Source: Endomicrobiia bacterium
Lineage (GTDB): Bacteria > Elusimicrobiota > Endomicrobiia > DTEH01
Direction of reading: 5' to 3'
Length of the DNA stretch: 64,000 bases
Assembly: GCA_039630545.1 (NCBI GenBank)
Contig: JBCNUU010000001.1
Span: 32,001-96,000 of the forward strand
In this document: positions 27,906 to 30,876 of the stretch, one piece after another
Layout: each line of letters starts with the position of its first letter
How positions within the stretch are numbered: the first letter of the stretch is position 1
Made by a program: the position numbers and the translations under genes
Notes under the pieces: model-generated
The model's database searches: none
The model's input: only the letters and a program-made list of their open reading frames with translations
What the model was told of the DNA's origin: nothing

Positions 27906-28620
27906 CTTAAGAAAAATTCTTAACCCATTACCTACTATAGCTGTTTCATTACTTGATAGCGATTTGGCAAATTTAGCAACTATAACAAGGAAGCTTCAGA
28001 AAAATAAAGTAAAAATTTTTCATTTAGACATAATGGATGGACATTTTGTGCCTAATTTGACATTTGGACCTCCTTTAATAAAGTCTTTAAGAAATCATAC
28101 TAAGGTTTTTTTTAATGTTCATTTAATGATAGAAAATCCTCAAAATTATATCTCAGATTACATTAATGCAGGAGCTGATCTTATAGTTTTTCATTATGAG
28201 AGTGTTAAAAAAAGAATTATCAGTCAAATAATAGGAGATATCAAAAAATCTAAAATTTTTTGTGGGATCGCTATCAAACCAGCTACTCCCATAAAAGTTT
28301 TATTTCCATTTTTAAATATTATAGATTTAGTTTTAATAATGACAGTAGAGCCAGGTTTTGGAGGTCAAAAAATAATAAAAAGCTGTATCTCCAAAATTAG
28401 TTTGCTAAAAAACTATAAAGAAGCTAATAACTTAGATTTCATTATTTCTTGTGATGGAGGAATAAATGAGCATAATCTAAAAGAGATACTAGATTTAGGA
28501 TGCGAAATCCCCGTGATGGGACATGCGATTTTTAGTTCTTCTGATTATGTTAAAAAAGTAAAAATTTTACAGAGATTGACAAATAGTTTAAAATTTCATA
28601 AATATACTAAAAATGAATGA
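27895..28620 (+). CDS. rpe: Ribulose-phosphate 3-epimerase
   Basis: HLDIMDGHFVPNLTFG, MTVEPGFGGQ and DGGIN motifs. Confidence 0.97.
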   Translation: MKNNLRKILNPLPTIAVSLLDSDLANLATITRKLQKNKVKIFHLDIMDGHFVPNLTFGPPLIKSLRNHTKVFFNVHLMIENPQNYISDYINAGADLIVFHYESVKKRIISQIIGDIKKSKIFCGIAIKPATPIKVLFPFLNIIDLVLIMTVEPGFGGQKIIKSCISKISLLKNYKEANNLDFIISCDGGINEHNLKEILDLGCEIPVMGHAIFSSSDYVKKVKILQRLTNSLKFHKYTKNE

Positions 28621-29386
28621 GTTATTTTTAGTGTTACAAAAATTAGTGAAACTTCAAAAGTATGATGAAGAATTAAGGCTATTAGATGAAGAAATTAATA
28701 CTATTCCTTTGGAAATAAAAAGTCAAGAAAATCTGCTCTTAGAAGAGCAGAAAACAAAAGATGAAATAAAAGAAAGAATTAAAAAAAATCAAGTAGAAAT
28801 AAAAGAAAAAGAAATAGAAATTCAATCTATAGAACAACAAATTAAAAAGCACATCCAGGAACTTAATTCCGTAAAAACAAATGAACAATATCGTGCTTTG
28901 CTTTCCGAAATAGAAAAATTAAATGCCCAAAAAGACGCAATAGAAACAGAAGTTCTGATTTTAATGGAAGAATTGGATAAAGAAAACAAAGAGTTGAAAA
29001 AAGAAGAAGAAAAATTGGATAAGATTAAGAATTTAGCAGAACAAAAAATTAAAGAATTAAAAGAGTTACAACAACAATTAAAACAGAAATTTGATTTAAA
29101 ACTTAAAGAAAGAGAAGAATTTGCTTCTACCATAGAGAAAAAATATTTGGATATATATAATAATATATCTTCAAAAAAAGAAAATGCATTATCTGCTGTA
29201 AATTTTAGTGACAATACTTGTGAAAAATGCAATATGGCTATTACTAAGCAAGAAATAAACGAGATTAAAAAATACGAAGAGTTTGTATTTTGTAGTTCTT
29301 GTTCTCGGATACTTTATATAGCTGAAGATATAAAAAATATACAACAAAATACAGAAGAAGGCATCGCTTTACCTCAGTTGAGGTAA
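28613..29386 (+). CDS. Coiled-coil C4 zinc-ribbon protein (zf-RING_7/CT398-like)
   Basis: L..LQ..D start, VKTNEQY.AL..EI, CEKC...CSSC.RILY. Confidence 0.88.
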   Translation: MNELFLVLQKLVKLQKYDEELRLLDEEINTIPLEIKSQENLLLEEQKTKDEIKERIKKNQVEIKEKEIEIQSIEQQIKKHIQELNSVKTNEQYRALLSEIEKLNAQKDAIETEVLILMEELDKENKELKKEEEKLDKIKNLAEQKIKELKELQQQLKQKFDLKLKEREEFASTIEKKYLDIYNNISSKKENALSAVNFSDNTCEKCNMAITKQEINEIKKYEEFVFCSSCSRILYIAEDIKNIQQNTEEGIALPQLR

Positions 29387-29777
29387 AGAGGAAAGTCCAA
29401 TTTTCCTACCTGGCAGAATTTTCTGCCAGGTAAAAAATGCAGTTAGCGAGGGTAGGGCGTTTTATGGAAATTTTTTAGACCATAAAATCTCTACCTGAAG
29501 CTAACCGCTACTTTCTTTAAAAGAAAGTAGCAGAGGTGCGAACAGAGACGCACTTACCCGTAAGGGTAAGTGGGTTCTATATTAAAGAGAAATTCTCTTT
29601 AATATAGGACTAGTCCTAACAAAATTCTTTCTTTAAAGAAAGAATTGAGTTAGGGGTGAAACGGCTAAATCCTTGCAGGAAACAAGGCCAAAAATATGGT
29701 GGGCCGCAGTAGACGAATGATGCCGTCTCGCTTAATAGCGAGATACAGAAATTGGCTTACTTCTGTATTTTGTTGTA
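29340..29777 (+). ncRNA. rnpB: RNase P RNA, atypical structure
   Basis: CR-I GAGGAAAGTCC (29388-29398), CR-II ACAGAGA, CR-III GGTGAAAC, CR-IV TAGACGAATG and CR-V ACAGAAATTGGCTTA (29745-29759). P1 is a perfect 18 bp (29340-29357/29760-29777). P2 ggcatc/gatgcc, P4 with bulged U, P15 ggcc/ggcc with loop GGU, and P19 are present. Mature ends are approximate. Confidence 0.95.
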
Positions 29778-29793
29778 AGAAATATATTGATAC

Positions 29794-30876
29794 ATGAATC
29801 TATTTACAGCAAAAAAAGTTGTAGGGTTAGACATAGGTTCCAAATGTATAAAAGTAGTTGCTTTAAACAAAAAAATTGATAGATATCGGTTAATGAGTTG
29901 GGAAGTAGCAGATTTACCTGATGAAATAGTTTCTATAGAAACTCCCCATGAAAAAAGAAATCCCATAATAATAGAAATTATAAAAGATATTTTTTCAAGA
30001 AACAAAAAACTATCAAAAAAAGTTAATATATCTGTATCAGGCCCTTCAGTAATAATAAGATATATAAAACTTCCTATAATGACAAAAGAAGAACTCTCAA
30101 AATCTATTTTGTTAGAAGTAGAACCTTTTATTCCATTCCCTTTGTCTGAAATATACTTGGGTTTTGATGTAATAGGAGAAGTGGTAGATGAAGGTGTAAA
30201 AAAAAATGAAGTTGTAATAGCGGCAGCTAAAAAAGAAATAGTTGATGCTAAACTTGACATTTTAAGACAGCTTAAATTTACACCTAAATTTATAGATGTG
30301 GATGCCTTCGTATTAGAGAGAGTTATTGGATATAATTATGATATAAATAATGATGTAGTATGTGTGATTAACATTGGAGCTAATGTCACGAATGTGAATA
30401 TTATAGAAAACGGTATAACTAAAGTGTGTAGAGATTTATCATTAGGTATGTACTATATTATAAACGAGATAAAAAAGACTACACAATTACAAAATAAAGA
30501 TATTCTTAAATATTTAAAAACAGATGGTCTGATTTTAAATGAACAAAAAAAAGAGGAATATATCTTACAGGATAAAAAGTTAGAATTAAATATCTCAAAA
30601 ATTTTACTCTCTTTGTTAAAAGAGATTGTAACCGAGGTAAGAAAAATTATAGATTTTTACTATTTTCAAAAAGGTGAACAAAAACCAATTTCAAAGATTT
30701 TCTTAAATGGTGGTGGATGTGTTATAAATGAATTGGTTAGTTATTTTAATAGTGAATTTAAGATAGATGTTGAAATTTTAGATCCTTTCAAAAAAATAGA
30801 TAATGCTGAAGATGTGCCTGAAGAAGTTAGACCAGTTTTAAGTACTGCCGTAGGTTTAGCGATGAGGCAAACATGA
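29794..30876 (+). CDS. pilM: Type IV pilus assembly protein PilM
   Basis: VGLDIGS..IK, PFP..E..L.F, NIGA..T, L.GGG and AVGLAMR motifs. Confidence 0.93.
   Translation: MNLFTAKKVVGLDIGSKCIKVVALNKKIDRYRLMSWEVADLPDEIVSIETPHEKRNPIIIEIIKDIFSRNKKLSKKVNISVSGPSVIIRYIKLPIMTKEELSKSILLEVEPFIPFPLSEIYLGFDVIGEVVDEGVKKNEVVIAAAKKEIVDAKLDILRQLKFTPKFIDVDAFVLERVIGYNYDINNDVVCVINIGANVTNVNIIENGITKVCRDLSLGMYYIINEIKKTTQLQNKDILKYLKTDGLILNEQKKEEYILQDKKLELNISKILLSLLKEIVTEVRKIIDFYYFQKGEQKPISKIFLNGGGCVINELVSYFNSEFKIDVEILDPFKKIDNAEDVPEEVRPVLSTAVGLAMRQT

Follow-up and report, generated by a model that had tools for sequence, protein, structure and literature searches.

A divergent RNase P RNA of uncultured Endomicrobiia points to an apparently undescribed three-hairpin architecture with altered interdomain bracing

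Introduction

The L8-P4 contact has been called ubiquitous in RNase P RNAs of types A and B, and its loss together with that of L18-P8 costs 22- to 3000-fold in vitro and leaves no complementation in vivo (Marszalkowski et al., PMC8457005; for this and all other papers cited, our statements refer to the portions of text that were accessible). In type B the L5.1-L15.1 strut is key, and the P18-less RNAs of Aquificales and Chlorobium compensate with an L9-P1 contact (Walczyk et al., PMC5066622). Type C RNAs have P6, P16, P17, P10.1, P15.1 and P18, lack P5.1 (PMC2858038, Table 3; PMC7191817) and are described as having converged on type B features (PMC2858038). CPR RNAs lack P13, P14, P16 and P17, sometimes also P12 and P18, and fall below model cut-offs; Lui, Nielsen and Arkin (2021; PMC8172020) call these losses not unusual and, in the accessible text, define no class. 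A helix map of 337 bacterial RNAs, with repeated losses of P6 (PMC12974513), may bear on the novelty of the form described below, and no form of this kind is reported in the accessible part of PMC1874661. Our literature search, in which few subscription papers were covered, returned no description of a three-hairpin fold or of Endomicrobiia RNase P.

Here we analyse the RNase P RNA gene (rnpB) in a 64,000-nt stretch of DNA (the window) from an uncultured member of the Endomicrobiia, and compare it with RNAs of its relatives and of Patescibacteria.

Results

Covariance-model searches placed the sole rnpB of the genome at 29340-29777 of the window. The first-pass annotation, made by hand folding, had expected Rfam models to give core matches with large indels. 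RF00010 (type A) matched 29347-29774 with 52.2 bits (E 3.8e-15; gathering cut-off 100), RF00011 (type B) gave 45.6 bits against a cut-off of 97, and RF00373 (archaeal) 26.6 bits against 84. In the RF00010 alignment CR-I, CR-IV and CR-V were matched and the position of P18 was a deletion. A search of the whole window with Rfam at gathering scores returned tRNA only and missed rnpB. The same holds for the close relatives that we call the family, whose RNAs score 44-81 bits with RF00010, leaving 10 of 10 family genomes below the Rfam cut-off. Model R1, which we built from 24 non-family RNAs on an imperfect automatic consensus structure, gave 106.6 bits for the window RNA and 110-145 bits for nine further members of the family; of the 23 controls, which were type A or another form, 20 reached 16-98 bits and 3 had no match. 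The strand folds with z = -17.7 relative to 100 shuffles. The features of the locus, with the evidence for each in brackets, are as follows.

28613..29386, plus strand: coiled-coil/C4 zinc-ribbon protein gene, upstream (weak CdsZ-like match)
29340..29777, plus strand: rnpB, RNase P RNA gene, 438 nt, single copy (Rfam models; model R1)
29340..29357, plus strand: P1 5' strand, 18 bp without mismatch with 29760-29777 (pairing, folding)
29360..29388, plus strand: P2 5' strand, pairing with 29718-29724, and P3 hairpin 29367-29388 (compensatory changes in 5 of 7 P2 and 8 of 9 P3 pairs)
29388..29406, plus strand: CR-I, P4 5' strand with bulged U29396, and P5 5' strand 29402-29406, pairing with 29678-29682 (RF00010 alignment, covariation)
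29407..29432, plus strand: hairpin of 11 bp at the P5.1 position (covariation)
29438..29441, plus strand: P7 5' strand, pairing with 29674-29677 (covariation)
29442..29505, plus strand: extended P8, comprising P8a (6 bp), P8b (8 bp), bulged C29458 and P8c (9 bp)
29448-29449 / 29497-29499, plus strand: P8 internal loop, 2x3, A-rich, at the place of L8 (family comparison)
29506..29533, plus strand: P9 with bulged A29532 and closing pair C29506-G29533, no GNRA loop (covariation)
29534..29550, plus strand: contracted P10/P11 5' strand, without the A-rich J10/11 bulge, and CR-II (invariant in the family alignment)
29551..29572, plus strand: hairpin H1, fixed 9 bp with GUAA tetraloop, an inserted element and candidate strut (9 of 9 pairs compensatory)
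29573..29611, plus strand: hairpin H2, abutting H1, variable in length (conserved G's at the base of the 3' strand)
29614..29655, plus strand: hairpin H3, probable P12 (7 bp, 2x2 internal loop, 10 bp)
29656..29673, plus strand: CR-III straight into the P11/P10 3' strand, without P13/P14 (all family RNAs)
29686..29705, plus strand: P15 with 12-nt L15, GGU at 29698-29700, without P16/P17/P6 (pairing, covariation)
29706..29718, plus strand: J15/2 with CR-IV, without P18 and P15.1 (length in the family)
29725..29759, plus strand: P19 (29725-29744), CR-V and P4 3' strand (RF00010 alignment, pairing)
29794..30876, plus strand: pilM, downstream neighbour (in this genus only, among the loci compared)

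The last 47 nt of the zinc-ribbon gene overlap P1-P3 of the RNase P RNA, and this gene is a conserved neighbour of rnpB across Elusimicrobiota, at type A and three-hairpin loci alike. Its stop codon lies inside P3 in the window and in G003, earlier in other relatives and past CR-I in L008. A promoter scan of the locus found 1 site, with 4.0 expected.

To assess the fold we assembled 22 distinct family RNAs, from 10 genomes grouped by taxonomy (G000-G009) and from 12 distinct members of 15 metagenome loci, the latter found by a P7/P5/P15 pattern that is independent of P8 and P18. The rnpB of a named Endomicrobiia record is the same as that of a genome in this class, which assigns the window to Endomicrobiia (Elusimicrobiota). 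Alignment A1 holds 15 of the 22, aligned with MAFFT by sequence only and without structure fitting; four RNAs whose inserts in P9 are very long, and three near-copies, were omitted. Given A1 and no other aid, RNAalifold recovered P2, P3, P5, P5.1, P7, P8a-c, P9, H1, H2, H3 and P15. Of the 1562 cells of the structure scored on A1, which omits P1 and the distal variable stems, 94% are paired (38-48% in controls with the structure slid along the alignment), and 78 of 106 pairs show a compensatory change, although p-values for covariation are overstated because related genomes are not independent samples. No position of the catalytic core varies. P4 and P5 are paired in 100% of cells, with compensatory changes in 3 of 8 and 3 of 5 pairs, compensatory changes also occur in P7 and P15, and every pair of P8b (8 of 8) is compensatory; P19 and the bases of H2 and H3 align less cleanly (57-85% paired), and no P10/P11 pair changes on both sides, so that its register is inferred.

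The covariation that the first-pass annotation had called for thus backs its fold, with no covariation in A1 that contradicts it. Its P1-P5, P7, P15, P19 and CR-I to CR-V are present, including the P4 pseudoknot with its bulged U; the 17 helices assigned to the window RNA, among them every one that the annotation had named, pair without mismatch, P3 starting with the pair C29367-G29388. The missing helices it had listed are missing throughout the family: P13/P14, as CR-III directly precedes the P11 strand in all members; P16/P17/P6, as L15, of 12 nt in the window RNA, has no conserved pairing and J5/6 is filled by a covarying hairpin; and P18/P15.1, as none of the 22 family RNAs has P18 and J15/2 measures only 11-13 nt. 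That covarying hairpin is the P5.1-like one of 11 bp, in which 10 of 10 pairs are compensatory; its loop is not conserved and has no L15.1 partner, and an A-rich linker (29433-29437) follows it. The added P8 and P9 both covary as proposed, but P9 closes one pair further out and the added part of P8 sits within L8. Three covarying hairpins do stand where P12 had been expected; the third, however, is probably P12 itself, because in relatives with a single hairpin this one, preceded by a GA(G) linker, adjoins CR-III on its 5' side, and H1/H2 are then an insertion in J11/12. The H1 loop is GNRA in 21 of 22 family RNAs.

Each of the types A, B, C, M and T (as described in the accessible parts of PMC7191817 and PMC2858038) is contradicted here by a defining feature. 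With type A (RF00010) the window RNA shares P1-P5, P7-P9, P15, P19, CR-I to CR-V, the L15 GGU and RnpA, but it lacks P6, P13, P14, P16, P17, P18 and a terminal L8, and it has P5.1 and H1/H2. It resembles type B (RF00011) in the position of P5.1, in lacking P6/P13/P14/P16/P17 and in running from CR-III straight into P11; unlike type B it has no P10.1, P15.1 or P18, hence no L5.1-L15.1 strut, and L5.1 is not conserved, so that the likeness of P5.1 is one of position and pairing alone. There is no room for P10.1 between P9 and CR-II or for P15.1/P15.2 in J15/2, and the L12-P10.1 contact that type B has cannot form. The absence of P13/P14 is shared with type C (Thermomicrobium, Sphaerobacter), from which published descriptions set the window RNA apart by its lack of P6/P16/P17/P10.1/P15.1 and its P5.1. 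Archaeal RNAs likewise lack P13/P14/P18, but the RF00373 score falls short of its cut-off and a search of the genome for the archaeal proteins Pop5, Rpp30 and L7Ae found none of them; type M moreover lacks P8 and type T lacks CR-II/CR-III, all of which are present here. In missing helices and sub-cut-off scores the window RNA resembles the diverged CPR RNAs, and some Patescibacteria carry the parent architecture described below. The accessible account in PMC8172020, however, has no P5.1, three hairpins, longer P8, covariation or Elusimicrobiota, and the family differs from the RNAs of that account in keeping GGU in L15 (22 of 22). Among other Elusimicrobiota RNAs of three-hairpin architecture, 7 of 40 have the L15 GGU. 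Nearly all 42 tRNA genes of G000 lack an encoded CCA, those flagged mostly showing a stem C-C plus the discriminator.

Comparison with non-family RNAs resolved the features of the window RNA into two layers. The first is a parent architecture, which we define by P5.1, contracted P10/P11 and H1-H2-H3 and by the lack of P6/P10.1/P13/P14/P15.1/P16/P17. All 35 non-family Endomicrobiia RNAs examined have P5.1 and lack P6/P13/P14, and all except that of genome G013 have a multi-hairpin insert; RF00010 gives them 32-140 bits, with many passing the cut-off (100-140 bits). In other classes of Elusimicrobiota, 72 of 77 matches score 147-271 bits with RF00010, and among 15 of them that were examined, 12 were type A and 3 (two families) had the three-hairpin form. 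A scan of GTDB for CR-III running into P11 gave at least 119 rows, at least 100 with Patescibacteria names, at least 4 with Elusimicrobiota names and at least 15 with other names or none. We rejected the idea that the form is the norm in Patescibacteria, where it is a minority by motif and inspection counts: the CR-II motif occurs in 17 of 301 Patescibacteria (reversed control, 0), the CR-III motif in 35 of 151 of one class (reversed control, 5), and the three-hairpin form in 5 of 69 RNAs examined.

Within the non-family set of 165 RNAs three hairpins are present in 148, P5.1 in 149 of the 154 with a parsed P8, and a GNRA L18 in 151; in two sets, 27 of 40 and 79 of 113 RNAs have a GNRA L9. The H1 loop is GAAA in 130 of 146 parsed RNAs, and H1 abuts H2 without a linker in 107 of 116. 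Across both phyla the offset at which the H1 loop begins is 9-10 in 107 of 108 RNAs. In 76 of 78 RNAs a spacing of 7-8 nt separates the GNRA loop of H3 from CR-III. The third position of L18 varies with the third pair of P8 (G-C with GNAA 111, A-U with GNGA 20, G-C with GNGA 7, A-U with GNAA 6), as it did in each phylum separately in an earlier set; this covariation shows the classical L18-P8 contact to be in use in the parent form. A few relatives lack H1/H2 altogether.

The claim of a distinct class, neither A nor B, is supported and holds against types C, M, T and archaeal A as well, and the class is far wider than the window RNA. Loss of P18 and a long P8, which the first-pass annotation had counted among its traits, belong to a second, family-level layer: typical three-hairpin members carry P18 on a 5-bp P8 with a terminal L8, and the window RNA, which has none of these, is a derived subtype. 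The subtype to which the window RNA belongs is apparently, and quite probably, undescribed.

Several RNAs seen in this survey depart from these patterns. In nine of them (L043, L062, L087, L110, L118, L132, L137, L147 and L161) the H2 loop is complementary to the H3 loop, by eye a possible pseudoknot in a sub-group of Patescibacteria. L270-L276, L279 and L283 represent another Patescibacteria form, neither A nor B, without P13/P14, with an extra helix before CR-II and with L15 apparently without a normal P15. Most of the Endomicrobiaceae-like RNAs (L002-L029) have G for a conserved C in the 3' strand of P4, and CR-I is altered in several Elusimicrobiota RNAs.

The second layer concerns the contacts between domains. 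In the family P8 is 34-65 nt long, and in 21 of 21 parsed RNAs (1 of the 22 was not parsed) a 2x3 internal loop follows its sixth pair; this loop is GA/GAA in 16 of the 21, and its three A's are invariant. The sequence reads U-R-A at the canonical L8 positions, which indicates that the P8 extension is an insertion into L8. Outside the family, 153 of 154 RNAs have a purine-pyrimidine third pair in P8 and 153 of 154 a G-C fourth pair; inside it, the counts are 1 of 21 and 12 of 21. Judged by these counts, the constraint on the L18 receptor in P8 has been lifted in the family. L9 is GNRA in 1 of 22 family RNAs, which sets them apart from the RNAs of Aquificales and Chlorobium that likewise lack P18 and L18-P8, and the H1 loop has changed from GAAA to GYAA/GUGA in 20 of 22. 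The predicted loss of the L18-P8, L14-P8 and L13-P12 struts is supported, with P13/P14/P18 absent and the L18 receptor unconstrained, but the prediction had overlooked the loss of the terminal L8 and of the L9 tetraloop.

Given the cost of losing L8-P4 and L18-P8 jointly (PMC8457005), a substitute contact is to be expected. Since the family lacks L18 and L9, only the P8 internal loop is left as a candidate for one of the known interdomain contacts, of which the family retains at most one, and its conservation suggests that the A-rich loop may well keep the L8-P4 contact. That a docking loop can turn into an internal loop when its helix is extended has a precedent in P9 of Deinococcus radiodurans, though there L9 is altered and the extension pairs with L12 (PMC8457005), whereas here L8 is affected and the family shows no conserved loop-loop pairing longer than 3 nt. 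New contacts, also proposed earlier, remain plausible from the fixed-length GNRA hairpins, and the H1 and H3 loops most likely act as new struts; no receptor was identified, however. Mutual information between these tetraloops and the pairs of P7, P8, P9, H1, H2 and H3 recovered only the known L18-P8 signal, the best receptor candidate for H3 being the base of H2 (p 0.09, register uncertain).

L8 is also remodelled in the type A Elusimicrobiota RNAs L176 and L179-L181, which lack P18, and in the Patescibacteria three-hairpin RNAs L067, L081, L089, L130 and L136, which apparently do; this suggests that P18 loss and L8 remodelling have been coupled repeatedly. In the family members L182, L184, L190 and L195, P9 holds palindromic inserts of 100-170 nt, related to hairpins in P3, P19 and H2 of other members.

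These two layers could be read as a type A RNA that has drifted and shrunk as in CPR, with the extra helices as neutral peripheral growth that braces nothing. Similar helix losses are called not unusual in CPR RNAs (PMC8172020), P18 has also gone from Aquificales, Chlorobium and 6 of 11 parsed type A Elusimicrobiota RNAs, P5.1, P8c, P9 and H2 vary freely in length, and H1/H2 can be missing. What such growth does not predict is fixed geometry, as found in H1 (9 bp and GNRA in both phyla), in the placement of the H3 loop and in the P8 internal loop with its fixed place and invariant A's, and we therefore consider it improbable.

The protein side of the enzyme is ordinary. The genome encodes an RnpA (PF00825, 80.3 bits; TIGR00188, 74.9 bits, cut-off 38.35) of normal length (128 aa) with a normal RNR motif, next to genes that we take to be rpmH-like and yidD-like, and RnpA is present in 59 of 61 genomes of the class. 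Our search for additional proteins took in Pop5, Rpp30, L7Ae, YlxR/RnpM and HARP; none of the five was found in this 95%-complete genome, and HARP was found in none of 81 genomes of the class. The proposed search for rnpA and HARP thus returned an ordinary RnpA and no HARP, and the suggestion of extra proteins is not upheld. An RNA that had lost its own bracing and required additional proteins, as in archaeal RNase P, would fit the lack of P13/P14/P18 and the retention of at most one known interdomain contact; with a normal RnpA and none of the proteins sought, this is very unlikely. The very low Rfam scores could also mark a decaying relic, with another enzyme maturing the tRNAs. That reading is hardly credible, because core positions are invariant, helices covary, RnpA is kept and HARP is absent from the class; the locus almost certainly encodes a real and active RNase P RNA. 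A crude six-frame composition (IVYWREL 0.425; (E+K)/(Q+H) 4.1) leans thermophilic; no reverse gyrase was found in the genome, and thermophily is not shown.

Finally, we compared the two domains of the RNA across the two phyla. At the second pair of P5, 67 of 71 Elusimicrobiota rows have U-A and 91 of 114 Patescibacteria rows, a viral contig included, have A-U. In a catalytic-domain tree of 77 columns and 185 of 225 rows (the others failed parsing) the phyla separate with 1 change (bootstrap 94, SH-aLRT 73), architecture needs 17 changes and a single three-hairpin clade is rejected (AU p 0.028). In the specificity-domain tree (89 of 152 rows kept after parsing) the phyla are mixed, with 7 changes, and paired columns may be saturated; both trees cover two phyla and few columns, with unsettled bootstraps and SH-aLRT below 80. 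The catalytic-domain sequence thus tracks phylum and the specificity domain does not, and whole-gene transfer is rejected by the catalytic-domain tree. Shared by the two phyla are the sequence of P7/P8/L8, the CR-II and CR-III variants, the contracted P10/P11, the length and loop of H1, the base of H2 and the linker.

The rnpB of G013 (L005:1517-1764, minus strand), with a single hairpin, is a candidate for a recent swap of the specificity domain. It has 55 exact nt from CR-II to P7 in common with the Patescibacteria RNAs L320 and L322, against a background of 21-32 nt for 62 other Elusimicrobiota RNAs; a 17-nt variable hairpin inside this tract is identical in all three, and both flanks of the tract are closest to the congener G021. 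G013 is an assembled genome, and the tract may be a chimeric assembly join.

Replacement of the specificity domain by recombination is the simplest reading of the trees and G013, and on these sequences it is rather likely that the domain moved between phyla by recombination inside a resident rnpB. P5.1-bearing, P6-less intermediates, which may hint at the direction of such a move, were seen in Patescibacteria only. The form could instead have arisen separately in Endomicrobiia and Patescibacteria, or be old and lost many times, with no transfer. Type C is a precedent for convergence (PMC2858038), the catalytic domain follows phylum, and many type-A-like Patescibacteria RNAs have, by eye, a P5.1-like hairpin and no P6, which would make parallel change easy; the invariant motifs could be functionally convergent. 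Against this stand the many elements shared by the two phyla and the identical variable hairpin of G013, and separate origins or repeated loss seem unlikely to us, though less so than the alternatives above. A phage vector for rnpB found no support: 5 and 2 viral pattern matches led to one parsed rnpB (L198), without three hairpins. L198 / L307 is an IMG/VR viral contig, maybe a host fragment, whose parent-type rnpB has no hairpin from CR-II to CR-III.

Discussion

Taken together, the sequence comparisons indicate that the window RNA is probably a functioning RNase P ribozyme of uncultured Endomicrobiia, in a subtype outside the named types and with altered bracing. Catalysis would be standard, with the bulged U of P4 and CR-I/IV/V binding metal ions, RnpA holding the 5' leader, the L15 GGU able to pair with 3'-CCA, and the T-loops of CR-II/CR-III stacking on the tRNA elbow. 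In the parent form, present in Endomicrobiia, two other Elusimicrobiota families and some Patescibacteria, P6/P16/P17 and P13/P14 are gone, a hairpin occupies the P5.1 position, and a stacked H1/H2 pair is inserted ahead of the probable P12 (H3). GNRA loops of H1 and H3, placed at fixed distances, most likely serve as new struts, with L18-P8, L8 and L9 kept. The family would then have lost P18 and L9 while P8 grew out of L8, the first bases of which may persist as the A-rich internal loop docking on P4, and long mismatch-free helices would supply rigidity. The specificity domain itself may have moved between two phyla by recombination in resident rnpB genes. The joint reading, of an unnamed class present in two phyla through a travelling specificity-domain module, with a family RNA active on one internal-loop contact, new GNRA struts and RnpA alone, is tentative, and we rate it somewhat short of even.

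RNAs that have been filed as weak class A matches or missed now have a defined model in the parent architecture, and as named and described Endomicrobiia genomes carry the parent form, material is within reach. If the exchange is real, a natural interphylum transfer of a ribozyme domain would show in nature the domain independence known in vitro, and would warn against relying on rnpB as a marker in phylogeny. According to published mutational work, a bacterial RNase P RNA requires L8-P4 and usually a second interdomain contact; the family is a natural test of this view, and of how little bracing RNA catalysis allows without archaeal-type proteins.
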